From Vicinamibacterales bacterium (GTDB taxonomy: Bacteria; Acidobacteriota; Vicinamibacteria; Vicinamibacterales; UBA2999): a stretch of DNA of 45,048 nt. The stretch covers positions 1 to 45,048 of the forward strand of contig JBIIDF010000002.1 in NCBI GenBank assembly GCA_044238535.1, in the 5' to 3' direction. Shown piece after piece: positions 4,408 through 33,717 of this stretch (the stretch's first letter is position 1; every line of letters starts with the position of its first letter). Made by a program: the position numbers and the translations under genes. The notes beneath the pieces were generated by a model. It did no database searches. It saw only the letters and a list, made by a program, of their open reading frames with translations, and had not been told where the DNA came from.

Positions 4408-6441
4408 TCAGTGAACGGGGCCGCAGTCACGCCGGATGTCACTGAACATGTCACGAATGACGTTGCCGAGCACGCGTGTGGCGCCGGCCGGGCTGATGTG
4501 CGAGCTGTCGATGTACCACGACTCGCCGGGACGTCCGACGCTCGAGAGGCCATCGGGACCGAAAAAGGGTTCCGCGAGGTCGACCACTCGCACGTGGTCG
4601 CCAGCCAGGTGCGCGAAGACGGCATCTACCTGTGCCTGCCGCGCGCTGTGTGTGGCGCGGCTGACACCACGGAGATTGATGGGGCGACGAAACAGGTGTG
4701 CCTCAATGACGCGGCGGCGCCACGGGAACGGTTGCGTCGGTATCTGCGCGAGGATCCACAGCGTCGCTCCCGACCGCACGGCCTCGTCCCGCACGGCTTC
4801 CAGTCCGGCCCGCAGGAGTTCGGCGTTCGAGAGTGCCGGTGATGTGGGGGCATCGATCGGCGCGAGAGCACGTCCGGGATTGAACCACATCCCCGCAAGC
4901 ACCACATGCCGCGGGCGGTGCGTGCGCATCCAGGTCAGTACGGCCTCGGTCCAGTTCGCCATCTCCCGGGGTCCCAACGCCCCAGCGGCTCCGCGATAAC
5001 GGGTGTCCCACACGCCGAGCAGGGGCAGCGTCCCTGGGCGAAGCGCCGCAGCACCACTGATCCCGAAGTGCCGCGCTGTTGAGTCGACGAGCCCGCTGAT
5101 GGCAACGCCGTGACTGTCGCCCCACAGCAGAAAGCACGGCGTGACGGACAGTCCGTGTTGACCGACCGCCGGCAAGTGCCAGGTCCCGTCGCCTGCAGGA
5201 CGGATAGGGGCACGAAATTTGGGATTCCAGGTCGATGTCCTCGCGAAGGCCAGCAGGTGTGGTGAAAATCGTCCGGGCCATCCTCCCGAGGACCATATCG
5301 CGCCTGCGGCACACGTCACCACACCGCAGGCCGCTGCTCCTACGGCCACTACCGCGAGTGCCGTCGGCCCCCGGTCAGAGACTCGTGAGCGACGGAACGG
5401 CTGTTCGACCCACTTCCACGAGATCACCGCCAGCACGATGCTGACGAACACCGCCGCCGCCGTATATGCCAGGGAGGGGTTGGGGCCGACGACGTAGCGC
5501 AGACAGGCGAGGACGGGCCAGTGCCACAGATACAGCGAATACGAAACGCGACCTACTCCGACGAGCGGGGCAACGGCCAGCAGGCGTGTGACCGGTGGCT
5601 CTTCCACGCCGTATGAGTGTCCTGCCGCAAGCAGCAGGGCCGTGCCGAGGCACGGCAGCAATGCCGCGGCGGCGGGAAACGTCGTGGCGCGGTCATACAA
5701 ACCGCATGGCACGATGATCAAGAGGAACGCGACGATGACGACCGCGTTCAGACGACCGCGATGCTGAGGCAGGGGAACCGGCGTCAAGGCCATCAGGGCT
5801 CCCAGCAGCAGCTCCCAGGCCCGAAACGGCAGCAGGTAGAACACCGCCTCCGGGCGACTGGCAATCAGCCCCTGGCTGGCCACATACGACACCAACGCGG
5901 TCGCCGCCACAGCAGCCGCACGGTGCCGGCGGTCGAGCGACCCTGTCAGCGACAGCAGGAGTGGCCAGAGCACATAGAACTGCTCTTCGATACCGAGCGA
6001 CCACATGTGCAGCAGGGGACGCAGGTCAGACGCCGCCTCGAAGTACCGGTCGACGCCTCGAAACCAGTAGCGCACATTGGCGAGCATGGCCGTGGATGCG
6101 CCGGCATCCACGGCAACGATCGCGTAGTCCGCTGGCAGCATCAGGAACCCACCAGCCAGCAGCACCGCGGTCGTCATCAGTAGCGCCGCAGGCCAGATGC
6201 GGCGGATTCGTCGCTCCCAGAAATGCAGCAGCGAGAAGCACCCGGCGTCCAGATCTCTGGTCAACTGGGAGGTCATCAAAAATCCCGAGATGACGAAGAA
6301 CACGTCCACGCCGACGTAGCCGCCCGGCACGCCCCATCCCGCATGAAAGAGCACCACGGCCAGCACGGCTACCCCTCGAAGACCATCGATATCGGCTCGA
6401 TAGTTCAAGGGGGAATGCCCGGCCTGCATCGGCATCGTCAC
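4408..6441 (-). CDS. Fused acyltransferase-3 / SGNH-domain O-acyltransferase (OafA/YrhL-like)
   Basis: The N-terminus YRADIDGLRGVAVLAVVLFHAG is the Acyl_transf_3 signature, followed by about 10 hydrophobic segments. A soluble C-terminal domain of about 280 aa (LLWGDSHG...) fits an SGNH fold. Confidence 0.8.
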   Translation of the reverse strand: MTMPMQAGHSPLNYRADIDGLRGVAVLAVVLFHAGWGVPGGYVGVDVFFVISGFLMTSQLTRDLDAGCFSLLHFWERRIRRIWPAALLMTTAVLLAGGFLMLPADYAIVAVDAGASTAMLANVRYWFRGVDRYFEAASDLRPLLHMWSLGIEEQFYVLWPLLLSLTGSLDRRHRAAAVAATALVSYVASQGLIASRPEAVFYLLPFRAWELLLGALMALTPVPLPQHRGRLNAVVIVAFLLIIVPCGLYDRATTFPAAAALLPCLGTALLLAAGHSYGVEEPPVTRLLAVAPLVGVGRVSYSLYLWHWPVLACLRYVVGPNPSLAYTAAAVFVSIVLAVISWKWVEQPFRRSRVSDRGPTALAVVAVGAAACGVVTCAAGAIWSSGGWPGRFSPHLLAFARTSTWNPKFRAPIRPAGDGTWHLPAVGQHGLSVTPCFLLWGDSHGVAISGLVDSTARHFGISGAAALRPGTLPLLGVWDTRYRGAAGALGPREMANWTEAVLTWMRTHRPRHVVLAGMWFNPGRALAPIDAPTSPALSNAELLRAGLEAVRDEAVRSGATLWILAQIPTQPFPWRRRVIEAHLFRRPINLRGVSRATHSARQAQVDAVFAHLAGDHVRVVDLAEPFFGPDGLSSVGRPGESWYIDSSHISPAGATRVLGNVIRDMFSDIRRDCGPVH

Positions 6442-21557: not shown

Positions 21558-22508
21558 TCAGTCAGGGGGAAGGGGCGGCGGTGCGCCTGTCAGTTCCCGA
21601 TAGAACGCGAGGCACCACACACCGTTCCCGACCAGGCAGGCGGGGGACAGGGCCAGAAACCGTGCAAGGTATCCCCATGCACCGAGCAGGTTCCTGGCGA
21701 TGTGCGGCAGGATCAGGAGCGGCGCCATGAAAATGATCGGCGGGAATCGCAAGACCAGACGCGCGGACGGCGATTGAAGGTGCCGGTGACACTGGGCCGA
21801 CGCCCGGCCCATCCGGCGGTTATAGGAGAGGAACTCACGCCAGCCTTCTCGATTCCAGTGGCTCACGACAATTGTCGGGTCGTAGACCACGTCCAGTCCC
21901 ACTTCACGAATCGCATGGGAAAACAGCACATCTTCGGCGAGGGTGCGGTCAGGAAACCGGATGCGACCGAAGAGCGAGGCTCGACAGGCGAGATTACATC
22001 CCAGTAGAAACTGGTGTGCGCGCGTGAACGAACGCCCGGACGGAAAGTGATAGAGGAACTCCAGGAAGTACACACAACACCCGCTGAGGTTGCTGGGGTT
22101 CCGGATGCCAATGGCTCCACCCGCAGCACCCACCCGCGAATCCTGGACGTACGTCATCAACCTGTCGATCCAATCCCCCGGCACGGTACAGTCCTGGTCG
22201 ACGAAGAACAGGAATGTGCCGCGCGCGGCCCGAGCACCGAGGTTTCGGGCCTCACCCGCGGTTACCTGCGTGGCAGGCGACAGGAGTCTAACGTGGGGAA
22301 ACTGCCGACGAACAACGGCGTCGGTGCCATCGGCCGAGCTTTCAACCACGATGATTTCTGCGCGGCGCCCGTGGATCGCCCGTTCGACGGACTGGATGCA
22401 GTCGGGTATGGTGCGCCTGCCGTGATACGCCGGGATGATGACCGACACCTCCACCGTCGACATGTCAGTGTCGTCCGACGATGTGGGTGCAGGATGTGTC
22501 ATGGCCAT
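21558..22508 (-). CDS. Glycosyltransferase family 2 with C-terminal hydrophobic segments
   Basis: Carries VSVIIPAYHGRRTIPDCIQSVERAI, IIVVESSADGT and FFVDQDC (DxD). The C-terminal part is hydrophobic (IIFMAPLLILPHIARNLLGAWGYLARFLAL). Confidence 0.8.
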   Translation of the reverse strand: MAMTHPAPTSSDDTDMSTVEVSVIIPAYHGRRTIPDCIQSVERAIHGRRAEIIVVESSADGTDAVVRRQFPHVRLLSPATQVTAGEARNLGARAARGTFLFFVDQDCTVPGDWIDRLMTYVQDSRVGAAGGAIGIRNPSNLSGCCVYFLEFLYHFPSGRSFTRAHQFLLGCNLACRASLFGRIRFPDRTLAEDVLFSHAIREVGLDVVYDPTIVVSHWNREGWREFLSYNRRMGRASAQCHRHLQSPSARLVLRFPPIIFMAPLLILPHIARNLLGAWGYLARFLALSPACLVGNGVWCLAFYRELTGAPPPLPPD

Positions 22509-22580
22509 TCGACGTGCCGTTCGCCTCAGGCCACCGCATGCTCCCGCAGACGGGGCACCGCCTCAGCGTCACGCCCTCGC

Positions 22581-22625
22581 GTGTTGACGAAAGATAAGTG
22601 TAGCACTGAGGGGTGGCTGTCACAC
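22581..22625. promoter_or_regulatory. AT-richer patch with promoter-like hexamers in the 283-bp divergent intergenic region (GT2 operon / ABC exporter operon)
   Basis: The + strand has TTGACG at 22584..22589. The - strand reads GTGACA-N15-TACACT (22623..22597). The hexamers are only approximate and the spacing is not ideal. Confidence 0.2.
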
Positions 22626-22791
22626 CCGTCACCCTGCCTTCTCCTGACCACAGACGGCAGCGCCTCCCGCCCCTGGGCCGCCCTTCCCCGAGTGGGGTGG
22701 ACGGCCGGTCCCGCCGGCGCAACGACCCGCGCAGTCGCCGCACCTCACGATTGCGTGTGCAGGCCGTGAATTGATTACCCTAGCCATAGTC

Positions 22792-24537
22792 ATGTCCATC
22801 GTCCGGCGAATCTGGTCGCTTCTGCTGCCCCGGCAACGTGAGAGCGCCGTCCTGCTGTTCGCCGCCGTGCTGGTCGCCACACTGCTTGAGACGGTCAGTA
22901 TCGGTCTCGTCGTTCCTGCGCTCGCATTCCTGACACGGGACATGAGCGCGACCTCTCCACACATGACCAGTTGGCTCACCTGGCTCGGCAATCCCGCACC
23001 CAACCGCCTGACACTCCTGGTGCTGGTCGGCATTCTGATGGTCTATGCCGCAAGAGCCGTGTTCCTCCTGTGTAAGGAGTACTGGCACGCAACATTCACA
23101 TCGGCCATTCAGGCGAGTACGAGCCGTCGGCTGTTTGCCCTCTACCTTGCGCAGCCCTGGACGTTCCACTTGCAGCGGCACTCGGCCACCCTGATGCGAA
23201 CCATCAACGAGTCTCAGGAGTTCGCCAGCCTCTGCGGGATCCTGTTCTCAGCGACCTCCGAAAGCCTCGTGCTGGTCACGCTTCTTGGTCTGCTGCTGTG
23301 GTACGAGCCGATGGGCACCATCGTCATTGCCGGCATGCTCGGCGTTGCGGCCTGGTTGTTTCAGGCGATCGCACGACCGTACTCGCTGCGCTGGAACAAT
23401 GCCCGACGGCATCACTCGAGGATGGTGATTCAGCACGTGCAGCAGGGGATCGGTGGTGCCAAGGATGTCATCATCCGCGGCTGCGAGCGTGAGTTTCTCG
23501 AGCGGTTCCGCCATCACACGGACGCGAGAGCCCGAATTGCGGCGTTGCAGTCGCTGATGTCGCGGGTTCCCCGTCTGTGGTTCGAGCTGCTCGCTGTCGC
23601 CGCACTGTTGCTGCTGACCTCCGTCCTGGTGTGGCAGGACGCCTCCTCCGAGCGTGTGCTGCCGATGCTGGGGCTGTTCGCCATGGTGGCGTTCCGTATG
23701 CTGCCGTCAGTGAACAACCTGACGAACTGGGCGATCCGGCTGCGAAGTGCGGAGAGCATGCTCGACCATCTGGCGAATGAACTGACGCTGGGTCACGACA
23801 GCTTGGGCGCACGGCACGGCCATCCGGTGATCTTCCGCGATGACCTTCTCATCGACGGTGTCTCCTACCGGTATCCGGGAGCCACTGAAGACGTACTGCA
23901 CGACGTACGCCTCCGCATTCCGCATGGCACGATGGCAGGCTTCGTGGGAAGCAGCGGTGCCGGCAAAAGCACGCTCATCGACGTGATCCTCGGCCTGCTC
24001 ACGCCGACGGCGGGCCGTGTGCTGGTCGACGGCCTGGACATTCAGGAGAATCTCCGCGGATGGCAGGACCGCATCGGATACGTCTCTCAGGCCATTTACC
24101 TGTGCGACGACTCCATTCGCAGGAACGTCGCATTCGGCGTGGCCGATGCCGACATCGACGATGGGGCCGTCCGGCGGGCACTGCAGGCGGCGCAACTCGA
24201 CCAGTTTGTCGACGGCCTTGCGGAGGGCATCGAGACGAATGTCGGCGAGAGGGGTGTCAGGCTGTCCGGTGGGCAACGGCAGCGGATCGGCATCGCCCGC
24301 GCGCTGTACCACGGTCCAGCGGTGCTCGTCCTTGACGAGGCGACCAGCGCGCTTGACACCGAAACTGAGGAAAGTGTCATGGCGGCCGTGAACGCCCTTC
24401 ACGGGACGAAGACCGTGATCATCGTCGCTCACCGTCTCACCACCGTGGCCAACTGCGATCGCCTCTATCGACTCGATCACGGGCGGATTGTGCAATCGGG
24501 TAACTACACCAATGTCGTCCCTTCGTCGGTGCGGTGA
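22792..24537 (+). CDS. Fused TMD-NBD ABC exporter (MsbA/PglK-type half transporter)
   Basis: The N-terminal six-helix-type hydrophobic domain is followed by Walker A GSSGAGKSTL, the signature LSGGQRQRIGIARAL, Walker B VLVLDEATSALD and an H-loop VAHRL. ATG at 22792; the track start at 22771 is a TTG. Confidence 0.85.
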   Translation: MSIVRRIWSLLLPRQRESAVLLFAAVLVATLLETVSIGLVVPALAFLTRDMSATSPHMTSWLTWLGNPAPNRLTLLVLVGILMVYAARAVFLLCKEYWHATFTSAIQASTSRRLFALYLAQPWTFHLQRHSATLMRTINESQEFASLCGILFSATSESLVLVTLLGLLLWYEPMGTIVIAGMLGVAAWLFQAIARPYSLRWNNARRHHSRMVIQHVQQGIGGAKDVIIRGCEREFLERFRHHTDARARIAALQSLMSRVPRLWFELLAVAALLLLTSVLVWQDASSERVLPMLGLFAMVAFRMLPSVNNLTNWAIRLRSAESMLDHLANELTLGHDSLGARHGHPVIFRDDLLIDGVSYRYPGATEDVLHDVRLRIPHGTMAGFVGSSGAGKSTLIDVILGLLTPTAGRVLVDGLDIQENLRGWQDRIGYVSQAIYLCDDSIRRNVAFGVADADIDDGAVRRALQAAQLDQFVDGLAEGIETNVGERGVRLSGGQRQRIGIARALYHGPAVLVLDEATSALDTETEESVMAAVNALHGTKTVIIVAHRLTTVANCDRLYRLDHGRIVQSGNYTNVVPSSVR

Positions 24538-24698
24538 CCGCGGCACGCGCGTCCAGAGCGGCCTGGTCGACCGCCACGGTCACGCGCCTCGGGCCGGGTG
24601 ACTCCTGAATCCGCCAGGGCGCGCACAGACCCCAAGCGCCCCCGCCGTGCTGTGCGTTATACTCACGAGTCTTCTCCGGAACAACGACGCGACTCTAC

Positions 24699-25820
24699 AT
24701 GAACGAAGCCGTGGTGCAGGGGCCCGATCCGGAACGTCGCAGTGCCACGCCACGAATGGAACAGGGCGCGGCACGTGAGAATCCACTGCCTGAACCCTAC
24801 ACCCTCGACCTCACGGTCATCATGCCCACCGTGGACTTCGGAGACGATTTCACTCGGTCGGCACGCCGCGTGATCCAGTCGATCGCACGGTTTCCTGGCA
24901 CCGCGGAATTCATTGTCGTGCTCGATGGACCGGCGGTCATGCCTCCCACGTGGCTTGACTGTTCCAGTGTGACGACCCTGGCAACCGGAGCCCGGCGTGG
25001 CCCTGCCTACGCCCGCAATGATGCGGCGAAGACCGCGCGGGGCCGCGTCCTCGTCTTCGTCGATGCGGATGTGGAGTTGGCGCCCGACGTGCTTGAACGT
25101 GTCGTCGTGGCGTTTGGCGACGAGCCCGAGCTCGTGGGAGTGTTTGGCAGCTACGACGATGAACCGGCGGTGCCTGGCCTGGTCAGTCAGTTCCGCAACC
25201 TGCTGCACCATCACACGCACGTGTCCCATCGGGGGCGTGCGACGACGTTCTGGACGGGCTGTGGCGCCATGCGGACAGCACACTTCCTTGCCGCCGGTGG
25301 ATTCGACCCTTCATATTCCTGCCCGAGCGTCGAGGACATCGACCTCGGGACGCGGGTGACCGCAGCGGGTGGCCGAATCGTGATTGATCCCTCGCTGCAG
25401 TGCAAGCATCTCAAGCGATGGACACTGGGGTCGATGATTCACACCGACGTGTTTGGTCGCGCAGTCCCGTGGACCAGAATGCTCCTGAGCCGTCGGCAGT
25501 GGCCCGCAACGCTCGCCATCGACTGGAGGAGCCGGGTGAGCGGTCTGCTCGCCATGATGCTCGTCACCGCATTGATTGCGGCGCCATTCGCATCCCAATT
25601 TTTCGCCGCTGCCACGGGAGCCGGTCTCGCGCTGGTCATCTGCCAGCACAGCTTCTATCGGCTCTGCCTCAGGAAGCGTGGACTGCTGTTCGCCCTGGGG
25701 GCTGTTCCCCTGCACGTGATGTTCTTCGTCTATTCGTCGATCACCTTCGCAGTCGTGGTAGTCGCCGACGCCAGCGGCTCACCGGGGCGGCAGACGGAGA
25801 CCCTCAAGGAATCAGCGTGA
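24699..25820 (+). CDS. Membrane-anchored glycosyltransferase family 2 (polyprenyl-phosphate-sugar-synthase-like architecture)
   Basis: Carries LTVIMPTVDF..., FIVVLDG, VFVDADV (DxD) and PSVEDIDLG. Three to four C-terminal hydrophobic helices follow (LLAMMLVTALIAAPF..., LFALGAVPLHVMFFVYSSITFAVVVV). Confidence 0.75.
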   Translation: MNEAVVQGPDPERRSATPRMEQGAARENPLPEPYTLDLTVIMPTVDFGDDFTRSARRVIQSIARFPGTAEFIVVLDGPAVMPPTWLDCSSVTTLATGARRGPAYARNDAAKTARGRVLVFVDADVELAPDVLERVVVAFGDEPELVGVFGSYDDEPAVPGLVSQFRNLLHHHTHVSHRGRATTFWTGCGAMRTAHFLAAGGFDPSYSCPSVEDIDLGTRVTAAGGRIVIDPSLQCKHLKRWTLGSMIHTDVFGRAVPWTRMLLSRRQWPATLAIDWRSRVSGLLAMMLVTALIAAPFASQFFAAATGAGLALVICQHSFYRLCLRKRGLLFALGAVPLHVMFFVYSSITFAVVVVADASGSPGRQTETLKESA

Positions 25821-25837
25821 TACCCGGACGGCGGCGG

Positions 25838-27013
25838 ATGACCGGTGGACCGTCGTGGCTGGCAGCGGTGTTGGCCGTGGCGGCGCTGGGTACCTTCGCC
25901 ACGGGTTTGTGGCTGACGTGGGTTATCAATAACGACGTGGACATGCAGTCACGCGTTGCCGAGTATTCCGCATTTCGCGTCGGTGACTACCCCAACCGGA
26001 ACCTCGACGTTCCAAGGCACAACCGGGAATTGCTATGGTCGGTCTATCCGCCGTACGCGTTTCCGATGTTCGCCGTGTTCTTTGAACCTGGCGGTCTTCT
26101 CCAGGGGCGAATCCTGATCCTTGTCTTCACGATCGCGGCCGTCGTGCTGATGGGCATGTATGGCTACGACCGGCTGAGGCCGTTCGGTCAAGCATGGGCA
26201 GTAGTCGGTGCCCTCTCCGGCGCGGCTATCTCGAGCAACGGGACAACCATCGGCTGGGGACAGTTTTCCACGATGTGCACCGGTCTGCTCGTGCTGCAGT
26301 TGATGCTCATAGAACGCGGCAGACCAATCTCCGCAGGCGTGGCATGGGCCGGGGCCATGATCAAGCCGCAGATCGCCCTCGCGTCAGCGGCGCTGTTCAT
26401 CGCACACCGCACGGGGCGGGGCCTGGTGGTCGGTGTCACCGTGCTGGCGGCTCTGAGCGCCGCAGCGATCTGGTGGACCGACATCTCATTCAGGGCGGTC
26501 GCTGAACACTGGCTGTTCCGATGGCCGGTCGGATTTGCGCTGAGCTCGAAGGCACTCGGTCCCGCTCATATGGCCGACTGGCTGGGCTGGAATCAGCGCG
26601 TCGTGCATTTTGCCGCGCTCGGAGTGTTGGCAGTGAGCGTGGTCACGGCAGCTCGGCGCCTGCCGCGAGACCTCTTGCGACTGGACCTCCTGCCGGGGGC
26701 GGCGCTGTGTGCCGTGCTGGGCCGAGTACTGCTCTACCATCGCCACTACGACGATGTGATGCTTTTCCCGCTACTGATGGCCTGCCTGGCGCTCGCACTC
26801 ACCACGCCAACAGGGGCGAATGTCGCCATGGCCGTCTCCGTGGGTGTCACGCTCGTGGTCCCCATGCGTGTCCTGAGTTGGATCCCGTTCGCAGAGGTCA
26901 TCCTGCCAGCGATTTGGGTCATCGCTGCCCTCGTGGTCTGCCGTGACGCCTTCGCCGGTGCACGACGCCAGGTCAGCGACGTAGGCCGCGCCCGTCCGGG
27001 CGCGGCGTGCTGA
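25838..27013 (+). CDS. Polytopic membrane protein, GT-C fold / DUF2029 (GT87)-like glycosyltransferase
   Basis: Hydrophobic throughout (about 10 predicted helices). Its size and position directly after a membrane-anchored GT2 fit this call. The ATG at 25838 or the GTG at 25817 (GTGA overlap with the upstream stop) could be the start. The track ORF from 25400 is an out-of-frame overlap with the upstream gene. Confidence 0.6.
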   Translation: MTGGPSWLAAVLAVAALGTFATGLWLTWVINNDVDMQSRVAEYSAFRVGDYPNRNLDVPRHNRELLWSVYPPYAFPMFAVFFEPGGLLQGRILILVFTIAAVVLMGMYGYDRLRPFGQAWAVVGALSGAAISSNGTTIGWGQFSTMCTGLLVLQLMLIERGRPISAGVAWAGAMIKPQIALASAALFIAHRTGRGLVVGVTVLAALSAAAIWWTDISFRAVAEHWLFRWPVGFALSSKALGPAHMADWLGWNQRVVHFAALGVLAVSVVTAARRLPRDLLRLDLLPGAALCAVLGRVLLYHRHYDDVMLFPLLMACLALALTTPTGANVAMAVSVGVTLVVPMRVLSWIPFAEVILPAIWVIAALVVCRDAFAGARRQVSDVGRARPGAAC

Positions 27014-27016
27014 GCA

Positions 27017-27046
27017 GGCGGCGACAAGGCACGGGGTGACGCCGCC
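27017..27046. terminator. Inverted repeat GGCGGCG-N16-CGCCGCC filling the 34-nt gap between the convergent GT-C and Wzy_C-TPR genes
   Basis: Read directly. The overlapping alternative stem GTGAC/GTCAC lies at 27036..27051. No T-tract. Confidence 0.3.
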
Positions 27047-27047
27047 G

Positions 27048-29198
27048 TCACTGCTTCAGCACATCTTTTCCGGCGCGAATATCCGCGATCAGCCGCTTCC
27101 CCTGGCCCTGAAAGTAGGTGAACTCCGTCATGGCCTGCTCAATCACGGCGATGGCACCCGGCACGTCCTGATTCAGCAGGTGCGCCGTGGCCAGCGAGGT
27201 TCGAAGGGTGAGGTCCCGCGGATGTCTGGCGATCAGGTGCCGGAAGACAACGGGCAGCAGGCGCGTCCGCTTGTTGTCAATCATCAGGGCGACCAGCTGC
27301 GGGTCCGGGTCGTTGGGAAGGTTCTCGAGCAGATAGGCTTCGAAGGCGGCGGTGTCGTCTGCCGAGACCAGTGCGGTCAGATACGTCCGACGAGCACGCG
27401 GAAACTCCGGGTCGAGGTCGAACGCGTCTTTCGCAACCACCGCTGCTTCGGCGAATCGCTTCTGGCTGAGAAGATTCACCACGAGGTCGAGCATGGGCTC
27501 CTGTTTCCGCGGGGTCAGTTGGTGCGCTCTCACGAGGAGCGGGTAACCCTTCTCAAACTGGCCCACCGCCGTCAGGAACGTTCCGCCCTGATGAAAGCCC
27601 CGGGGATCGAGAGGCGAGTACGCGGTCTGCGCATCGATGGCCGTCTGCGCCAGGTGCAGAAATGCCTGCCGCATCTCGGGGTCCAGTGACGTCCGTATCA
27701 CCTTTCCCGCAAACTGAATCGCCTGCTCGCGGACTTCCTGGGAGCCGGTGCCAGGCATGGCAAGCGCCTGCTGATACAGCGCCAGATTCTTGCCGAGGCC
27801 ATCGCCCTGTGGCTGTGCCGCCTCCAGCACAAGTGCCCCGAGGCGGTAGGGAACGATGTTGAAGTAGTACAGACCAAGCGTCATCCCAATCATCACCACG
27901 GGCGCGATGACGAAATCACGGATGTGCCCCGGCACCGTGAATGCGGGGAAGGCATAGGCCGTGGCCACGCGGCTGTGCACAAACGCCAGCAGCGCGAAGA
28001 ACATGACGTAGCCCGGAATGGTGTCGAACAGGGTCAGGCTGTGCGTCCCGTAAGCCACGACGAGCCCGATCAGAACGGCTCGCTCATGCAGGTGGAATGG
28101 CCCGCGCCAAATGGCGAGGAGGGCCAGCACATACAGGGCGGCATACAGCAGGAACCCGAAGACCCCGGCCGCGACGAACCAGTCGAGAAACGCGTTGTGT
28201 GCCCGATCCCACCACGGTTCGTCAGCCCACAGTCTCGAGTCGTAGAAGCGGGCATAGACGTAGTTGAAACCGTCCTGCCCGTATCCGAGGACCGGCTTCT
28301 CGGCAATGCCCTGCAGTGCCATGGGCCACATGAAGCTGATGCGGGTATTCTGCAGTTTCGTGTTCACGACACGCCGCACCGTGGGGTTGTCTCTGGCGAA
28401 CGGCATGTCTTTGATGGCATAGAACGCAGGTCCCGACAGTACGACGATGGCGAGCATCGCCATCGCCAGGTAGCGGCCGGGGGTGCGGCGCTTTTCCTGC
28501 CAGGCGAAGATGGCAGCCGCCGCGACGACACCGACGATGAGTGCCAGCAACGTGCCGCGTGTGGCGGTCCTGAACAGGATGAAGAGGTTGAAGAGGGTGG
28601 TGACGCCATACAGCCACGACGCCCAGCGGCCTCCATACCGTGCGGCGATCAGATACACGGCAAAGCCGATGTTCACCAGCAGGTAGATGGCAAGTTGTCC
28701 GGAGTTACCCATCGTGGAGTCGACGCGGTCGGCGTCCTGATAAAAGGTGATGATCCCGAATGCCTGAAAGAGCCCGTACATCGACACGACCATGGATGTG
28801 GCGATGGAGGCGGTCATCCAGGCACACCAGAGCTGTGTCCCCATCACCGTCCCGGCCACCACGAAGAACATCCACAAATGGAGAATGGTGACGAAGCCCT
28901 CCATACGCTCGAAATTCGACCAGAAGCTCCTGTGGGGATTGACCCCGAACAGGTCCGCGACCAGCACGACCACGACGAAGGCGGCAGCGGTGACGGACAG
29001 GAGCGATATCTTCGGTCGGTAGCGCGGCTCACGAACCGCGAGCAGGACATAGCACGCTACGACGATGTCCACGAGCGAGCGGAAGTAGATGGCCTTCCCG
29101 GTGATGAACGGAAACAGCAGGGACTGGGCGATGATACCGGGCGTGAGCACGGTCAGGAAGAGTCCGGCAACGACTGCCCAGTACAGGGGATTGTTCAT
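27048..29198 (-). CDS. Wzy_C (O-antigen ligase/polymerase-like) polytopic membrane domain fused to C-terminal TPR repeats
   Basis: Wzy_C hallmarks are present: FRTATRGTLLALIVGVVAAA and DRAHNAFLDWFVAAGVFGFLLY. The N-terminus is LLFPFITGKAIYFRSLV. The last ~250 aa are helical repeats with TPR-like spacing (ALYQQALAM..., FLTAVGQFEKGYPLLVRAH..., RFAEAAVVAKDAF...). The ATG at 29198 (MNNPLYW) is preferred to 29486. Confidence 0.75.
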   Translation of the reverse strand: MNNPLYWAVVAGLFLTVLTPGIIAQSLLFPFITGKAIYFRSLVDIVVACYVLLAVREPRYRPKISLLSVTAAAFVVVVLVADLFGVNPHRSFWSNFERMEGFVTILHLWMFFVVAGTVMGTQLWCAWMTASIATSMVVSMYGLFQAFGIITFYQDADRVDSTMGNSGQLAIYLLVNIGFAVYLIAARYGGRWASWLYGVTTLFNLFILFRTATRGTLLALIVGVVAAAAIFAWQEKRRTPGRYLAMAMLAIVVLSGPAFYAIKDMPFARDNPTVRRVVNTKLQNTRISFMWPMALQGIAEKPVLGYGQDGFNYVYARFYDSRLWADEPWWDRAHNAFLDWFVAAGVFGFLLYAALYVLALLAIWRGPFHLHERAVLIGLVVAYGTHSLTLFDTIPGYVMFFALLAFVHSRVATAYAFPAFTVPGHIRDFVIAPVVMIGMTLGLYYFNIVPYRLGALVLEAAQPQGDGLGKNLALYQQALAMPGTGSQEVREQAIQFAGKVIRTSLDPEMRQAFLHLAQTAIDAQTAYSPLDPRGFHQGGTFLTAVGQFEKGYPLLVRAHQLTPRKQEPMLDLVVNLLSQKRFAEAAVVAKDAFDLDPEFPRARRTYLTALVSADDTAAFEAYLLENLPNDPDPQLVALMIDNKRTRLLPVVFRHLIARHPRDLTLRTSLATAHLLNQDVPGAIAVIEQAMTEFTYFQGQGKRLIADIRAGKDVLKQ

Positions 29199-29471
29199 AG
29201 ATGCACCGTCCGCAGCAGGCACGCGGTTGTGTGCCACGCCCTCAGGCGACTGGCCTCTCATGATAGCTGCCATCCCGGCGCCACTGTGCCAATTCTGTCG
29301 ACGTGCGCCCATCCGACAGACAGGCGGCCAGGGCCCGCGGAGGAACAATGGCCGGAGGTCGGTCGCTGGCCGGCGGACGTGGCGGCGGGGTCGTTGACGC
29401 ACGTGCCGCTGCTCGCGTACCCTCGCTTCGAAACGAGCGGAGGCTGACGGGCCGTCCGGACTGTGTGAAAC

Positions 29472-30323
29472 ATGCGACGACGGCACTCCAAAGAAGTATT
29501 CAGCACACCTTCGTTGCAGGTGGGACGCCGCCTCGTGCTGCTGTTCGCCGCGTGGCTGGCCGGTTGGCCGGCGCCGGTCCTGGCACAGACAGCCGCCGCC
29601 GACCGGCCCATGGTGGTCGAGCGGCCGAGCTTCTCAACCCCTCCGGACCTCGTGGGTCAGCACCGCTGGCAAATCGAGTCCGGTATCAGCTGGCGCCGCC
29701 TGTCGGAAGACGAGGACGCCTCGCCCCTGGTCACCACCGCACCGAACCTGACACTGCGCGTCGGGGTGCATCCGCGGCTCGAGTGGCGGGTCGCCACCAG
29801 CGGAGTCGACTGGTGGACAGTCGACGGACGGACGTCTCATGCGGTGGCCAATCCCTCGGTCGGACTCAAGTATCACCTGCTGCTCGAGCGGCATAGCGGC
29901 GTCGACCTGTCAATCGTGCCGATGCTGACCCTGGGCTGGCCGCATGATCAGTCACCGGCAGCGTCGGTCGTGGTGACGGCAGCCAGGTTCATGGGCCCAG
30001 TCGGCCTGAATGCCAATCTCCTGGTGGCGCGCGACTGGTCCGATCGGGCGGCGGTGGAGCGTGACCTGAGTCTGGCACTGACCGAGGCGCTGTCTCCAGA
30101 CTGGAGTGCCTTTGCCGAACTGGTGCGCGTCCAGACTGCGACCGACCACCCCGGACAGTGGACCGTGAATGCCGGTGTCGGACGGCTCATCGGCGCGAAT
30201 GTCGCGGCCGATTTGTTCGTGGGGCGACCCTTCGATGCCGCCGCAGGCGCCTGGCGCTATGGCGTAGGGCTGAGCTGGCGCAGCCGCTACCGCTCGGTGG
30301 CCCCGAACACGCGCCCGCACTGA
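29472..30323 (+). CDS. Outer-membrane beta-barrel protein, Phenol_MetA_deg-like transporter family
   Basis: A signal peptide ends in VLAQ. DRPMVVERPSFSTPPDLVGQHRWQIESG resembles the conserved N-terminal block of that family. Alternating beta-strand pattern. Confidence 0.6.
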   Translation: MRRRHSKEVFSTPSLQVGRRLVLLFAAWLAGWPAPVLAQTAAADRPMVVERPSFSTPPDLVGQHRWQIESGISWRRLSEDEDASPLVTTAPNLTLRVGVHPRLEWRVATSGVDWWTVDGRTSHAVANPSVGLKYHLLLERHSGVDLSIVPMLTLGWPHDQSPAASVVVTAARFMGPVGLNANLLVARDWSDRAAVERDLSLALTEALSPDWSAFAELVRVQTATDHPGQWTVNAGVGRLIGANVAADLFVGRPFDAAAGAWRYGVGLSWRSRYRSVAPNTRPH

Positions 30324-30459
30324 CCCGCGCGTGGCCCGCTGCGGAATCTCGCGCGGACCACGGGCTCGCGTAAGAATCTCACATCCCTTCCTGCATTAGG
30401 ATGAGGCCGGTTGCGACGATCCTGTCCTGCCATCGACGTCTCTGTCTGAAGCCCCCGCC

Positions 30460-30480
30460 GCGCCCTGAGGGTCAGGGCGC
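30460..30480 (+). promoter_or_regulatory. Perfect 9-bp stem / 3-nt loop hairpin GCGCCCTGA-GGG-TCAGGGCGC, 15 nt upstream of the catalase-related ORF
   Basis: Read directly. It lies 137 nt after the upstream stop. No T-tract follows it, and there is no obvious Shine-Dalgarno element between the hairpin and the ATG at 30496. Confidence 0.4.
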
Positions 30481-30495
30481 CTCTCGTGAACCCCT

Positions 30496-31485
30496 ATGTT
30501 GCCACCAAGCACCCACTGGAAAGAACAGCCTGCCGCCGATGAGGCCGTCCGATTCGCGCAGTATGCCGAGACGTTCACCGAACTGCAGCAGCAGCGCTCG
30601 GCTCAGCGGGGCGTCGGTCGCGTGCTGCACCGCAAGCAGCATCTGGGCTTGAAGGCGAGCGTCACGATTTTTCCAGACGTGCCTGACGCGGCGCGCTACG
30701 GGCTGTTTGCCCGACCCGGAGACTATGACGCCGAGATCAGGCTCTCCAACGGTGATTCGGACCGTCGTCCCGACCGCATGCCGGATGTCCGTGGCTTCGC
30801 GATTCGGCTGCTCGACGTCCACGGCCCCGGGGCCCGTGGGGTCGAGACGGCCGAACAGAATTTTGCGCTCATCAACTTTGCCGCCTTCGGATTTCCTAAC
30901 GTGCGGGAGTTCTATGAGGTCGTGATGAGTTCATCCCGGGGATTTCCGTCACTCATCAGCAATCTCGTCCGTCGTCACGGTCTGGTCGGCGGGTTGACGC
31001 AGCTGCGCCGCATCCTGACCGTGTTCGGTCAGCCTTTCCATGGCTTCGCGCGCAGCCCGATGTACTCGGCCGCTGCCATTGCCTGCGGGCCCTACGCCAT
31101 CAAGGTGCGCATCCTGCCCGGCGACAACGGTGGCCCGCCCGCCTCAGGCACGCCCGACTACGCCGCCGATATGCACAACCGCCTGCTCGTGCAGGATCTG
31201 ACGTGGGATCTGCAGGTGCAGTTCTTTGTCGACGCGGCCATCACACCGATTGAAGATGCGTCAATCCAGTGGCCGGAGGATGTGACGCCGTTTCACACGG
31301 TTGGTCGGCTCACCGTGCCGAAGCAAGACACGGACAGTGCCGAGGGGCAGGCACTCTCCGCTCGCATCGAAACCTCATTTTTTGATCCCTGGTACGCCCT
31401 GATGGACCATCGCCCGCTGGGCGAAGCCATGCGCGCCCGCCGCGTGACGTATGACGCCAGCCGGAAGGCACGCGAGCACGCCTGA
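30496..31485 (+). CDS. Small catalase-related (catalase-core-like) haem protein
   Basis: RLSNGDSDRRPDRMPDVRGFAIRLL matches the catalase-fold block R-x-S-x(n)-D-x-RGFA. At ~330 aa it is much shorter than a canonical catalase. Confidence 0.6.
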   Translation: MLPPSTHWKEQPAADEAVRFAQYAETFTELQQQRSAQRGVGRVLHRKQHLGLKASVTIFPDVPDAARYGLFARPGDYDAEIRLSNGDSDRRPDRMPDVRGFAIRLLDVHGPGARGVETAEQNFALINFAAFGFPNVREFYEVVMSSSRGFPSLISNLVRRHGLVGGLTQLRRILTVFGQPFHGFARSPMYSAAAIACGPYAIKVRILPGDNGGPPASGTPDYAADMHNRLLVQDLTWDLQVQFFVDAAITPIEDASIQWPEDVTPFHTVGRLTVPKQDTDSAEGQALSARIETSFFDPWYALMDHRPLGEAMRARRVTYDASRKAREHA

Positions 31486-31536
31486 CCACCGCCTCAGGCG
31501 TGTGAAGTCGGATACCATGACGGTGGGGATGGTGCG

Positions 31537-32232
31537 ATGCGTTCGCTGAATCTGGTGGGGGGAGAGAAGGGAGGCGTCGGCAAGTCGGTCGTCTCACGGC
31601 TGCTGGCGCAGTATTTCATCGACGGGGGTCGCGCCTTTATCGGGTTCGACACCGACCGGTCGCATACCTCGTTCGCGCGCCATTACCCGGCACACGCCGC
31701 CCCGGTCGTCGTCGATTCGTATGAAGGCCTCGACGGGATCGTCGAACAGTTGGTCTCGGGCACCGAGACCAGCGCGATTGTCGATCTGGCGGCGCAGACG
31801 CTGGGGCCCGTGTCAGAGTGGGTGTCCGATTCCGACGTGCTGGGACTCATGCTCGATATGGGTATTGCCGTCAATATCTGGCACGTGTCCGACGGCGGAC
31901 AGGAGTCGGTCGAACTGCTGGCGGAACTGACACGACGTTATCGCGACCGTCCCTCGTACGTCGTCGTCCGCAACGCGGGCCGCGGCAGTGACTTCAGTCA
32001 CCTGGACGCCTCGTCCGGCCTGACCGACGCCCAGCGCTTCGGCGCAGATGTCATCACGCTGCCGTCCCTGCACGAGGCCTGCATGCGCAAGGTCGATCGT
32101 GCCGGTGTGTCATTCGGCGAGGCCCTGAACAGCGAGCTGCCTGGCGGTCCGATTCTCGGACTGCTGGAACGCCAGCGCCTGAAGACCTGGCTGCGCCAGT
32201 CGTTCGCTGAATTTTCGCGCCTGGCCGTCTAG
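31537..32232 (+). CDS. TraL/ParA-like P-loop NTPase (deviant Walker A)
   Basis: LVGGEKGGVGKSVVSRLLAQYFID...GFDTD is a KGGVGKS deviant Walker A with the downstream DTD. The length (231 aa) and the C-terminal block LLERQRLKTWLRQSFAEF parallel IncP TraL-type proteins. Confidence 0.6.
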   Translation: MRSLNLVGGEKGGVGKSVVSRLLAQYFIDGGRAFIGFDTDRSHTSFARHYPAHAAPVVVDSYEGLDGIVEQLVSGTETSAIVDLAAQTLGPVSEWVSDSDVLGLMLDMGIAVNIWHVSDGGQESVELLAELTRRYRDRPSYVVVRNAGRGSDFSHLDASSGLTDAQRFGADVITLPSLHEACMRKVDRAGVSFGEALNSELPGGPILGLLERQRLKTWLRQSFAEFSRLAV

Positions 32233-32272
32233 CGGGGCGTCCTCGAGCGCCCTCGCCAGACGACGTGCGTGG

Positions 32273-32911
32273 TTAGAACCGGCGCGACAGCCCGATGCTG
32301 ACTGCCAGTGTGCCGTGCGCTGACGGTCGAAAGTCGATGGCGGCACCGGCCGTGCCTTCCCAGCGTTTCGACAAGGGACGACCGAATTCAGCGCCCACAC
32401 GCACCAGATTCAGGTCGCCCTCAGGATCGAATTCCCGCCCGGCACCCGCAGACACCGTCCAGGCCTTCGCCGGTTTCCAGCTCAGCATCAGGGCCGGCGC
32501 CACAGGTCGCGAGCGCCGGACCGTCCCATTCTCACGGTCGTCACCATCGGCCACCACGATCAGGCTCTCGACGGTCAGGTCGGTGTGCACGCCAACGGCG
32601 AACCGGCTGGTCAGCCAGTAGTTGTAGTTGACGCCCCACCCGGCCACCGTCAGCCACTGAGTGCGCCCGGACTCCCCCACGCCCGACGGCACGTGGACGT
32701 GCGCGAGCGAGAGGTTCAGCTCATGACGCCCTTCGTCGGATGCCTCCTCGCTGTCGGCCTCGTCCACATCGATCGCGCGAACGGGCGCACCTGATTCCTG
32801 CGCCTGTGCAGAGGCGGATGCAGGCACGCCGCACAACATAAGCGTCAGCATCGCGGGCATGCCGGCAAGAACAGGGACACGATTACCACGACGGAACATC
32901 GAAAGTGACAT
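32273..32911 (-). CDS. Putative outer-membrane beta-barrel protein
   Basis: Signal peptide ...CGVPASASAQA, alternating hydrophobic pattern, and a C-terminal ...IGLSRRF ending in Phe as in many OMPs. ATG at 32911 preferred to 32950. Confidence 0.5.
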   Translation of the reverse strand: MSLSMFRRGNRVPVLAGMPAMLTLMLCGVPASASAQAQESGAPVRAIDVDEADSEEASDEGRHELNLSLAHVHVPSGVGESGRTQWLTVAGWGVNYNYWLTSRFAVGVHTDLTVESLIVVADGDDRENGTVRRSRPVAPALMLSWKPAKAWTVSAGAGREFDPEGDLNLVRVGAEFGRPLSKRWEGTAGAAIDFRPSAHGTLAVSIGLSRRF

Positions 32912-32920
32912 GCCCCGATA

Positions 32921-32934
32921 GTGTCGCACGACAC
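32921..32934. promoter_or_regulatory. 14-bp palindrome GTGTCGcaCGACAC in the 71-bp divergent intergenic region
   Basis: Read directly. The 2-nt centre is too short for an RNA loop, so a dimeric DNA-binding site is more plausible than a hairpin. Confidence 0.25.
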
Positions 32935-32982
32935 CACCTCGCCCCGCCATCGACCGATGATAGCGGCCGCACCTCTGGCATA

Positions 32983-33717
32983 ATGCCGGCCTGCCCTTCA
33001 GAGAGGTGCTGGTTGAGTGCTGTGCGTCGCCTGCTGTTGCTGTCGCTCCTTGCCGCCGGTCTGCTGGCTCCGGTCGTCATGGCCCAGAGCTATCCTCACG
33101 CCTTTCCCCGTACGGGCGTGACCCGACTCTTCGAGAATGAGCGCGTCATTGCGTGGGACGTCACGTGGCTTCACGATGTGCCGCAGCCCTATCACCGCCA
33201 TCAATACGACATGGCGGGCGTCTACACGGTGTACGGGCCCATTCAGGTCACGGCTCTGGACGGCACGGTGGCACCCATCACACCGTTCGCCGTACCGCGA
33301 CCGTATTTCCAGCCGAAGGACATCACGCACAAGGAAGAGGCCATGGGCCTCGCCGGTGCCCCCGTGCGCGAGGCCGTGATGCTCGACCTCAAGGAGGGCG
33401 CGTTCGCGCCGGTGACCCGTCCCGGTACACCCGCCGCGTTTCCGCGCGACGGGGCTGCCAAAGCCATCGACAATGCCCGCGTCATCGAGTGGGATTACGT
33501 GTGGATTCCCGGGCGACCGGTCGGGACGCGCATCTATGAGCGCGATGCCGTCGAAGTGTTTTTCGACGGGGGCACGATCCGGTATCGCACCCCGGATGGC
33601 ACGGAAGAGACCCGCACGTTCGCGCGGAAGGATGCGCGCTTCATTCCCCGCGGCACCATCCGCAGTGAAGAAGCAGTCGCCGGCGCGCCTCGCGCGGTCA
33701 TTGTGGAACTGAAGTGA
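32983..33717 (+). CDS. Secreted hypothetical protein with internal tandem duplication (cupin-like halves)
   Basis: Signal peptide RRLLLLSLLAAGLLAPVVMAQ. Two homologous halves begin at NERVIAWDVTW... and NARVIEWDYVW... An alternative TTG start at 33013 is preceded by GAGAGG. Confidence 0.6.
   Translation: MPACPSERCWLSAVRRLLLLSLLAAGLLAPVVMAQSYPHAFPRTGVTRLFENERVIAWDVTWLHDVPQPYHRHQYDMAGVYTVYGPIQVTALDGTVAPITPFAVPRPYFQPKDITHKEEAMGLAGAPVREAVMLDLKEGAFAPVTRPGTPAAFPRDGAAKAIDNARVIEWDYVWIPGRPVGTRIYERDAVEVFFDGGTIRYRTPDGTEETRTFARKDARFIPRGTIRSEEAVAGAPRAVIVELK

Follow-up and report, generated by a model that had tools for sequence, protein, structure and literature searches.

In Helicobacter pylori, the PglK homologue Wzk and the ligase WaaL form an O-antigen route (PMC2841628), and the same two enzymes are needed for both O-antigen assembly and adhesin glycosylation (PMC9553153). 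In the Gram-positive bacteria Paenibacillus alvei and Geobacillus stearothermophilus, whose S-layer proteins carry glycans, the P. alvei protein WsfB fuses a Wzy_C domain to tetratricopeptide repeats (TPR) and is a predicted S-layer O-oligosaccharyltransferase, and G. stearothermophilus WsaB is a predicted O-oligosaccharyltransferase with the TPR protein WsaA encoded beside it; a C-terminal TPR part is found in both WsfB and PglL (PMC2943079). The O-oligosaccharyltransferase PglS was modelled with 13 transmembrane (TM) helices and a periplasmic C-terminal domain (PMC12800693), and the pilin oligosaccharyltransferase TfpW has a periplasmic C-terminal TPR domain (10.1101/2020.04.19.049825). Here, we analyse four adjacent genes, termed A to D, in 45,048 nucleotides of DNA from a Vicinamibacterales bacterium (contig JBIIDF010000002.1, positions 1 to 45,048; this whole stretch is hereafter the window), which encode an ABC half-transporter, a membrane-anchored family 2 glycosyltransferase (GT2), a polytopic GT87 glycosyltransferase and a Wzy_C-TPR protein. 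The block is a mosaic of two independently evolving units of different ancestry, B-C (with A) and D, which we explain best, with slightly more confidence than doubt, as the outward-facing end of a very large glycan island.

The four genes are arranged as follows.

22792-24537, plus strand: gene A, ABC half-transporter, 581 aa (Pfam ABC_membrane and ABC_tran)
24699-25820, plus strand: gene B, membrane-anchored GT2, 373 aa (Pfam Glycos_transf_2, GT21)
25838-27013, plus strand: gene C, GT87 (GT-C class) polytopic glycosyltransferase, 391 aa (Pfam PF09594)
27048-29198, minus strand: gene D, Wzy_C and TPR protein, 716 aa (Pfam Wzy_C, TPR_19)

The original prediction, made from the letters of the window, had listed these four genes and read them as one module that flips a lipid-linked glycan and transfers it to an acceptor. 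The genes themselves were confirmed by their Pfam domains and by a coding-type GC content at third codon positions (GC3, 0.70-0.79 in all four open reading frames), and an identical 581-aa product of A is recorded in public gene calls. Gene C starts at an ATG at 25838, 18 nt past the final base of the B stop codon, or alternatively at a GTG at 25817 that overlaps this stop codon, and both of the spacings first proposed hold. Genes C and D converge with 34 nt between their stop codons, and public gene calls start D 13 codons earlier, at a GTG at 29237, which gives 729 aa. A promoter and terminator scan of 22300-29700 yielded nothing exceeding shuffle expectation.

The gene order D-C-B-A recurs in two independent assemblies (L090 and L094; compared loci carry L numbers throughout), so the arrangement is not a chimera. 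An assembly chimera of a Patescibacteria genome and a high-GC genome was rejected because the D junction recurs in both assemblies, D shares the local GC and GC3, and its amino-acid bias is of the high-GC type. The block nevertheless fails as a single module, since D accompanies A-B-C only in the window lineage. Scanning metagenome contigs with the C alignment gave 71 C-family loci, each of which was searched with A, B, C and D, and D was found in just one of them, L094, which belongs to the window's own lineage (95% identity); no B or C homologue was found across 80 D-family loci. The four genes are thus not one co-inherited system, and the first interpretation is upheld only in part: its chemistry is reasonable, with a PglK-like A, a B-C pair and a ligase-like D, while its parts form a mosaic and were not inherited together. 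Within the window lineage, A and D of L094 are 95% identical to those of the window and B and C only 84-86%, which suggests recombination within the four-gene block.

The two units can be named by their relatives. The first combines a GT2 and a GT87 of planctomycete type with an ABC flippase, the second is a Patescibacteria-type WaaL-fold ligase with an outward TPR part, and both are joined to a hypervariable glycan island. Both parts vary on kinds that are already known. Literature searches on Wzy_C/TPR in Patescibacteria and on DUF2029/GT87 found no description of these gene sets, and a search on O-antigen ligase in Parcubacteria found none.

In the first unit, B and C are tightly coupled. 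Of 52 informative loci, 33 have B directly before C at a distance of up to 600 bp, and in 29 of the 33 the two genes share a strand; they are read without an intervening stop codon in at least nine loci (L130, L132, L141, L143, L144, L146, L149/L150, L152, and L157). The L152 fusion protein, 760 aa long, carries the GT2 as well as the GT87 domain by Pfam, and six to seven proteins of fusion length are present among the top 150 C-family representatives. Adjacency and in-frame fusions, the latter being strong evidence, therefore argue that B and C act in one pathway, in line with their early treatment as a pair. A 1,366-aa TPR protein that converges with a GT2-GT87 arrangement in L086 was tested as a possible relative of D and is not one.

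For B, Pfam Glycos_transf_2 scores 47 bits (cut-off 23), with a further match to GT21, and its AlphaFold2 model (pLDDT 88) has a GT-A domain followed by helices at residues 243-359, with hydrophobic spans at 278-315 and 327-360. This architecture, a GT-A domain with C-terminal helices, fits the plan of GtrB/ArnC/DPMS-type synthases. In Foldseek searches, however, the best match was the membrane mannosyltransferase PcManGT (6YV7), and hyaluronan synthase (HAS) and cellulose synthase (BcsA) matched with TMq ~0.6 over ~400 columns. Judged by its model, B is clearly a membrane-embedded GT2 predicted to act on something within the bilayer, which may be a polyprenyl phosphate. The motifs D122-x-D124 and E212-D213 are invariant in the family, which comprises >2,700 homologues of 45-67% identity, the named ones from Planctomycetota. 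The B family also has an invariant His-rich motif, F165-RNLLHHHTH (F-R-N-L-L-H-H-H-x-H, residues 165-174), on a helix of the GT-A domain; we know of no described role for this His cluster.

Gene C matches Pfam GT87 (PF09594, formerly DUF2029) at 41 bits (cut-off 25); no NCBIfam family was found for it. An acidic motif lies just after TM1 in the first outward loop, with E42 invariant and D33 and D35 nearly invariant, and these residues make up the usual GT-C signature. Close relatives of C are few, with one named relative from Planctomycetota, and an exhaustive profile search returned 130 representatives when E was limited to 1e-30 and 586 when the limit was relaxed to 1e-10.

The original prediction had called A an MsbA/PglK-type exporter, and the comparisons point specifically to PglK. 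Against NCBIfam, A scores 306 bits with MsbA (cut-off 602), 287 with PglK (1000) and 283 with HepA (725), all under cut-off, and by this measure it is the equivalog of no named transporter. Against the PDB, its top full-length half-transporter match is PglK (258 bits, residues 6-567), and its membrane domain alone (residues 1-330) matches only PglK (E 2e-11), residues 6-311 of A aligning with residues 4-311 of PglK. Three of the four PglK cavity arginines are kept (PglK R86, R260, and R302 correspond to A R88, R261, and R302), and the fourth, R309, is replaced by Asn. In its substrate-handling part, A is thus PglK-like, and it is a candidate flippase for lipid-linked sugars or glycans.

The B-C pair repeatedly has such an exporter as its third partner. 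Full-length A homologues (49-60% identity) adjoin B-C in L085, L099, L100, and L112, with the A-B-C order of the window in L099 and L112, and weaker ABC exporters stand directly beside B-C in six further loci. In L099 and L112, the trio is found alone, without other glycan genes, and has a desaturase, a photolyase, and a GTPase among its neighbours. The simplest reading is that A-B-C is a self-contained system in which a lipid-linked sugar is made inside, flipped, and used outside. In L143 and L152, a FAD amine-oxidase-like gene, an ABC exporter, and a GT2-GT87 fusion stand in a row; the FAD/NAD-binding amine-oxidase-like gene (~490 aa; 5486-6958 in L143, 4842-6323 in L152) is shared by contigs that are otherwise unrelated, and its product may synthesise or alter the sugar or lipid on which the ABC and GT2-GT87 system acts.

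The second unit, gene D, is divided as follows.

27966-29198, minus strand: residues 1-411, 12-helix WaaL-like core with the Wzy_C domain (Pfam, AlphaFold2, Foldseek)
27858-27929, minus strand: residues 424-447, 13th TM helix (AlphaFold2, hydrophobicity)
27075-27797, minus strand: residues 468-708, TPR superhelix, predicted extracytoplasmic (Pfam, AlphaFold2)

The Wzy_C domain (residues 201-352) scores 76.9 bits against a cut-off of 31.7, and 78.1 bits when the TM domain is searched alone; TPR_19 matches residues 576-639, and TPR_14 matches too. The AlphaFold2 model (pLDDT 92, pTM 0.87) has 13 membrane helices and places a putative outward catalytic loop (residues 264-335) between TM9 and TM10, as in the 12-helix WaaL fold. 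The top Foldseek match in the PDB is the WaaL structure 7TPG (TMt 0.61, 461 columns); no other match listed is a membrane protein, and a family profile of the TM domain also matches 7TPG (E 9e-7). At the sequence level, this relationship emerged once the profile was cut to the TM domain: when D was searched against the PDB as a single sequence, no membrane protein was matched, and the full-length profile was swamped by TPR matches. With hhalign, D and Escherichia coli WaaL align colinearly over 306 columns at low probability (2%; E 0.022 for a single comparison), and D R214, R286, and H334 pair with E. coli R215, R288, and H337, which we take to be essential WaaL residues. D R214 and H334 likewise align with 7TPG R191 and H313, and across 65 family sequences R214, R276, and H334 are invariant. 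A general Arg/His assignment for the ligase-type active site has been described (PMC12800693).

The model continues helix 13, which brings the chain back to the outer face, from residue 424 to 461, with a hydrophobic segment at 426-449, and the Arg/Lys-rich loops at 57-65, 235-242, 366-373, and 412-423 are consistent with a cytoplasmic side. The TPR domain has 14 helices in the model and matches OGT and consensus TPRs by Foldseek and by profile. From the 13 helices and this positive-inside pattern, it is predicted to be extracytoplasmic, so the cytoplasmic placement that would have told against the original prediction was not found. Seven TPR residues (E488, E491, P529, R533, P563, K565, and Y606) are invariant in 65 diverse family members. 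A TPR scaffold does not usually show such invariance, which suggests that the domain has a single conserved ligand or partner.

The relatives of D are numerous and taxonomically narrow, coming almost entirely from ultra-small bacteria devoid of lipopolysaccharide. More than 2,500 full-length relatives (clusters) of ~720-750 aa share its Wzy_C-TPR plan, the named ones from Patescibacteria, and the best 80 D-family loci among GTDB species genomes are all in Patescibacteria metagenome-assembled genomes (MAGs), at up to 49% identity. The closest relatives (44-55% identity) lie on contigs of 37-39% GC with typical Patescibacteria synteny. There the position of the gene is fixed, with a variable glycan cluster on one side and murB on the other (L005-L084, L001, L003, L089, and L162): murB comes next after the D-family gene in 45 of 80 loci, with secA-obg-gatB behind it in L001, L003, and L089, whose contexts are annotated, and within 10 kb upstream Wzx is found in 26 and Wzm in 13 of the 80. 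The three closest contexts (L001, L088, and L089) adjoin Wzm/Wzt. Since the family is linked to Wzx-type as well as Wzm/Wzt-type clusters, it behaves as a ligase would, and from fold, active-site residues, and gene context we infer that D itself is a ligase-like protein, the role that it had first been given, and not a Wzy polymerase. The best high-GC candidate for a family member outside Patescibacteria, P0059, was rejected, as it still keeps the Wzx-D-murB synteny. Gene D of the window is therefore of Patescibacteria affinity and sits in a foreign setting, best explained by horizontal transfer with later amelioration to the local GC.

Two features of the Patescibacteria loci bear on the glycan and its acceptor. 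First, the constant murB link raises the idea that a cell-wall component might be the acceptor of the family. Second, a divergent block is conserved in L001 (3850-9940), L088, and L089 and consists of Wzm, Wzt, three methyltransferases, and an asparagine-synthase-like gene, with a Wzt_C domain on the Wzt of L001 and L088. If it resembles known Wzm/Wzt O-antigen systems, this block could be the sign of an ABC-dependent glycan whose chain terminator is methylated. The Geobacillus cluster presumably also holds Wzm/Wzt and a methyltransferase domain, in parallel to these three loci.

Upstream of the four genes lies the cytoplasmic part of the island, with these features.

506-22508, strand not assigned: glycan island, cytoplasmic part, 5' of gene A (Pfam scans)
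4408-6441, minus strand: AT3-SGNH O-acyltransferase (Pfam)

By Pfam, 506-22508 holds ~10 GT2/GT4/WbsX glycosyltransferases, two sulfotransferases, two methyltransferases, and one AT3-SGNH O-acyltransferase. A longer contig that overlaps the window adds at least 10 kb of further glycosyltransferases and sulfotransferases to the left, with which the island spans ~39 kb. With at least 20 glycosyltransferase genes in addition to methyltransferases and the AT3-SGNH acyltransferase, the island is unusually large, and its sulfotransferase-family genes number five (two in the window, three further left); this gene content suggests that its product is a heavily sulfated, methylated, and acetylated polymer. 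Pfam and hydrophobicity searches of the 45-kb window and ~10 kb further left found no exporter besides A, and neither Wzx nor Wzm/Wzt was found there. Among the open reading frames scanned or checked for hydrophobicity, the only polytopic proteins are A, B, C, D, and two acyltransferases, and no small polytopic open reading frame of the GtrA or ArnE/F type is present in the region.

The window has a GC content of 65% throughout. To the right of D (29472-33717) are signal-peptide proteins resembling outer-membrane beta-barrels, one with a C-terminal Phe, followed by a ParA-like gene (named 'mobilization protein' by NCBI) and then housekeeping genes. The ParA-like protein and a lactonase cluster at ≥90% identity with MBM3781997.1 and MBM3782005.1 of an "Acidobacteria bacterium" MAG. 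Because the flanking proteins match this Acidobacteriota-labelled MAG and the neighbours are outer-membrane beta-barrel-like, the host is most likely diderm. This Acidobacteriota-labelled host of the island occurs in lake-metagenome-style samples. The contigs of sister strains (L091-L093) end 2-3 kb before the ParA-like gene is reached, and in L092 a phage-type integrase lies at the break. The breaks and the integrase near the ParA-like gene indicate that the island is strain-variable, and its boundary may be a recombination or integration hot spot.

Together, these data lead us to propose a division of labour in which the island's cytoplasmic glycosyltransferases, sulfotransferases, and methyltransferases would build a lipid-linked glycan that the AT3-SGNH protein would acetylate. 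In unit 1, B would work at the cytoplasmic face and charge a lipid carrier in the membrane with a sugar, the PglK-like half-transporter A would flip the resulting lipid-linked sugar, and C would transfer it to an acceptor on the outer face, following the logic of Gtr/Arn systems with an ABC flippase possibly replacing GtrA or ArnE/F. Being the sole exporter in the stretch examined, A most likely also flips the island glycan for D, as Wzk does for WaaL in H. pylori, and D would then transfer the finished undecaprenyl-diphosphate-linked glycan en bloc to an extracytoplasmic acceptor. For the window host, we give a protein or another acceptor unrelated to lipopolysaccharide (LPS) about an even chance, and lipid A-core a distinctly smaller one. 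The idea of a protein acceptor, raised from the start, has a precedent, as a Wzy_C-TPR fusion, WsfB, has already been proposed as a protein O-oligosaccharyltransferase (PMC2943079).

Several observations weigh against this proposal. First, B is by its model structurally nearer to synthase-type membrane GT2s (PcManGT, HAS, and BcsA) than to GtrB, which ranks only 29th in the Foldseek search (TMq 0.42), and no ArnC, GtrB, DPMS, or other polyprenyl-phosphate sugar synthase model of NCBIfam matched it. Second, no initiating phosphoglycosyltransferase was found in the window or ~10 kb to its left, so the lipid-diphosphate character of the island glycan is an assumption. Third, an ABC exporter accompanies B-C in only 10 of 48 informative loci, and the island runs past the left end of the sequence, where Wzx or Wzm/Wzt could sit. 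Finally, D gave no signal with PglL_A or Wzy_C_2 of Pfam even at E up to 10, and the host being diderm, an ordinary O-antigen ligase role is possible.

This last role is the first of the rival explanations, in which D is a conventional O-antigen ligase that moves the island polysaccharide to lipid A-core and the TPR part docks the exporter or handles the long glycan instead of binding an acceptor protein. WaaL is the sole solved membrane protein that matches D in fold and profile, the catalytic residues are kept, the host appears diderm from its MAG matches and beta-barrel-like neighbours, and a PglK-type flippase with WaaL is a known LPS route (PMC2841628). Against this stands the distribution of the family, which is almost confined to Patescibacteria, members of the candidate phyla radiation (CPR), a monoderm clade (10.1101/2021.05.31.446380). 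With nearly all relatives in monoderm hosts, the ancestral acceptor would not have been lipid A-core, and this cell plan combined with TPR residues invariant across the family argues for a conserved ligand and an acceptor other than lipid A-core. Neither D nor its TM domain, moreover, matched any NCBIfam model, including the curated WaaL models. On balance, we consider this conventional role improbable next to our proposal, if well short of negligible.

Of similarly limited probability, in our view, is that A serves B-C alone, the island glycan leaving through a transporter outside the sequence seen, and the four genes being neighbours and not one pathway. The occurrence of the B-C pair and of the A-B-C trio away from glycan clusters (the trio being isolated in L099 and L112, and an ABC exporter accompanying GT2-GT87 fusions in L143 and L152) means that A may mainly flip the B product for C and not the island glycan. 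The absence of D from all C-family loci outside the window lineage and the island running off the left end of the data point the same way. For the part of the original prediction in which the ABC protein flips the island glycan, the support that stands is that A is the only exporter seen, and the trio's life apart from glycan clusters speaks against it. Several points count against a transporter reserved for B-C: no second exporter is present in the 45-kb window or 10 kb further left, D needs a flipped donor and adjoins unit 1 in two related strains, and PglK and Wzk are relaxed in their choice of substrate, flipping many glycans (PMC2841628). That D is a Wzy-type polymerase joining repeat units on the outer face, its TPR part a built-in chain-length regulator, is very unlikely: the Pfam Wzy_C domain is common to polymerases and Wzx is near 26 of 80 relatives, but 13 of 80 and the closest three adjoin Wzm/Wzt, where polymerisation is cytoplasmic, the window has no Wzx, and hhalign, which aligns D colinearly with WaaL, yielded no alignment with the polymerase WzyE.

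Our preferred account, the outward-facing end of a glycan island made of two units, can be extended to a broader and tentative idea that we favour less than the account itself. In this idea, the D family would be a general surface glycan ligase of Patescibacteria, encoded by a near-core gene, whose TPR part selects protein (S-layer, pilin) or cell-wall acceptors in the manner of an O-oligosaccharyltransferase. The window would then record how this ligase crossed from one phylum into a free-living diderm of another, where it was wired to a planctomycete-type GT2/GT87/ABC flippase module, itself an undescribed three-component glycosylation system in which an ABC transporter flips the lipid-linked sugar. 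If true, >2,500 clusters of WaaL-fold, outward-TPR enzymes would exist in bacteria without LPS, and identifying their acceptor would explain how Patescibacteria dress their surface. Further, the Gtr/Arn paradigm would gain a flippase type from the GT2-GT87 pairs and fusions that have an ABC half-transporter as partner, and a relaxed ligase with a PglK-like flippase would be of glycoengineering interest. For the window itself, the four genes offer a route by which a huge sulfated glycan is probably exported and attached, and an example of how glycan islands are assembled from parts of different phyla.

Among described systems, the Wzk/WaaL route of H. pylori is one of those closest to the locus. 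In both, an MsbA/PglK-type half-transporter takes the place of Wzx or Wzm/Wzt, the glycan is built wholly by cytoplasmic glycosyltransferases, and a WaaL-fold enzyme then transfers the flipped undecaprenyl-diphosphate-linked glycan en bloc, a step that is here predicted. Unlike that route, D has a 13th helix, an outward TPR domain, and a Patescibacteria-centred family, and the window exporter is embedded in a GT2/GT-C unit, with no wecA seen.

In domain plan, D resembles WsfB and WsaB, in which a Wzy_C enzyme is likewise fused to, or encoded beside, a TPR module; unlike in those systems, no S-layer or pilin gene was identified beside D, and the window host is diderm. With PglL, PilO, and PglS, D shares the Wzy_C core, the catalytic His, and the Arg residues that would bind pyrophosphate, and with PglS in particular a 13th TM helix followed by an outward C-terminal domain, as predicted. 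It differs from PglL and PilO in giving no PglL_A or Wzy_C_2 signal, and from PglS in that its C-terminal domain is a TPR superhelix of 240 residues, whereas that of PglS is compact.

Finally, the B-C pair is comparable with GtrA/GtrB/GtrC, with ArnC/ArnE-F/ArnT, and with mycobacterial Ppm1 and its GT87 mannosyltransferases, in all of which a membrane GT2 at the cytoplasmic face is paired with a GT-C enzyme at the outer face. The genes are adjacent likewise, even fused in some loci, and C is a GT87 protein by Pfam. They differ in that B-C, where it has a flippase partner, has an ABC half-transporter in place of a small protein of the GtrA or SMR type, and in that the structure predicted for B is more like those of PcManGT, HAS, and BcsA than like that of GtrB.

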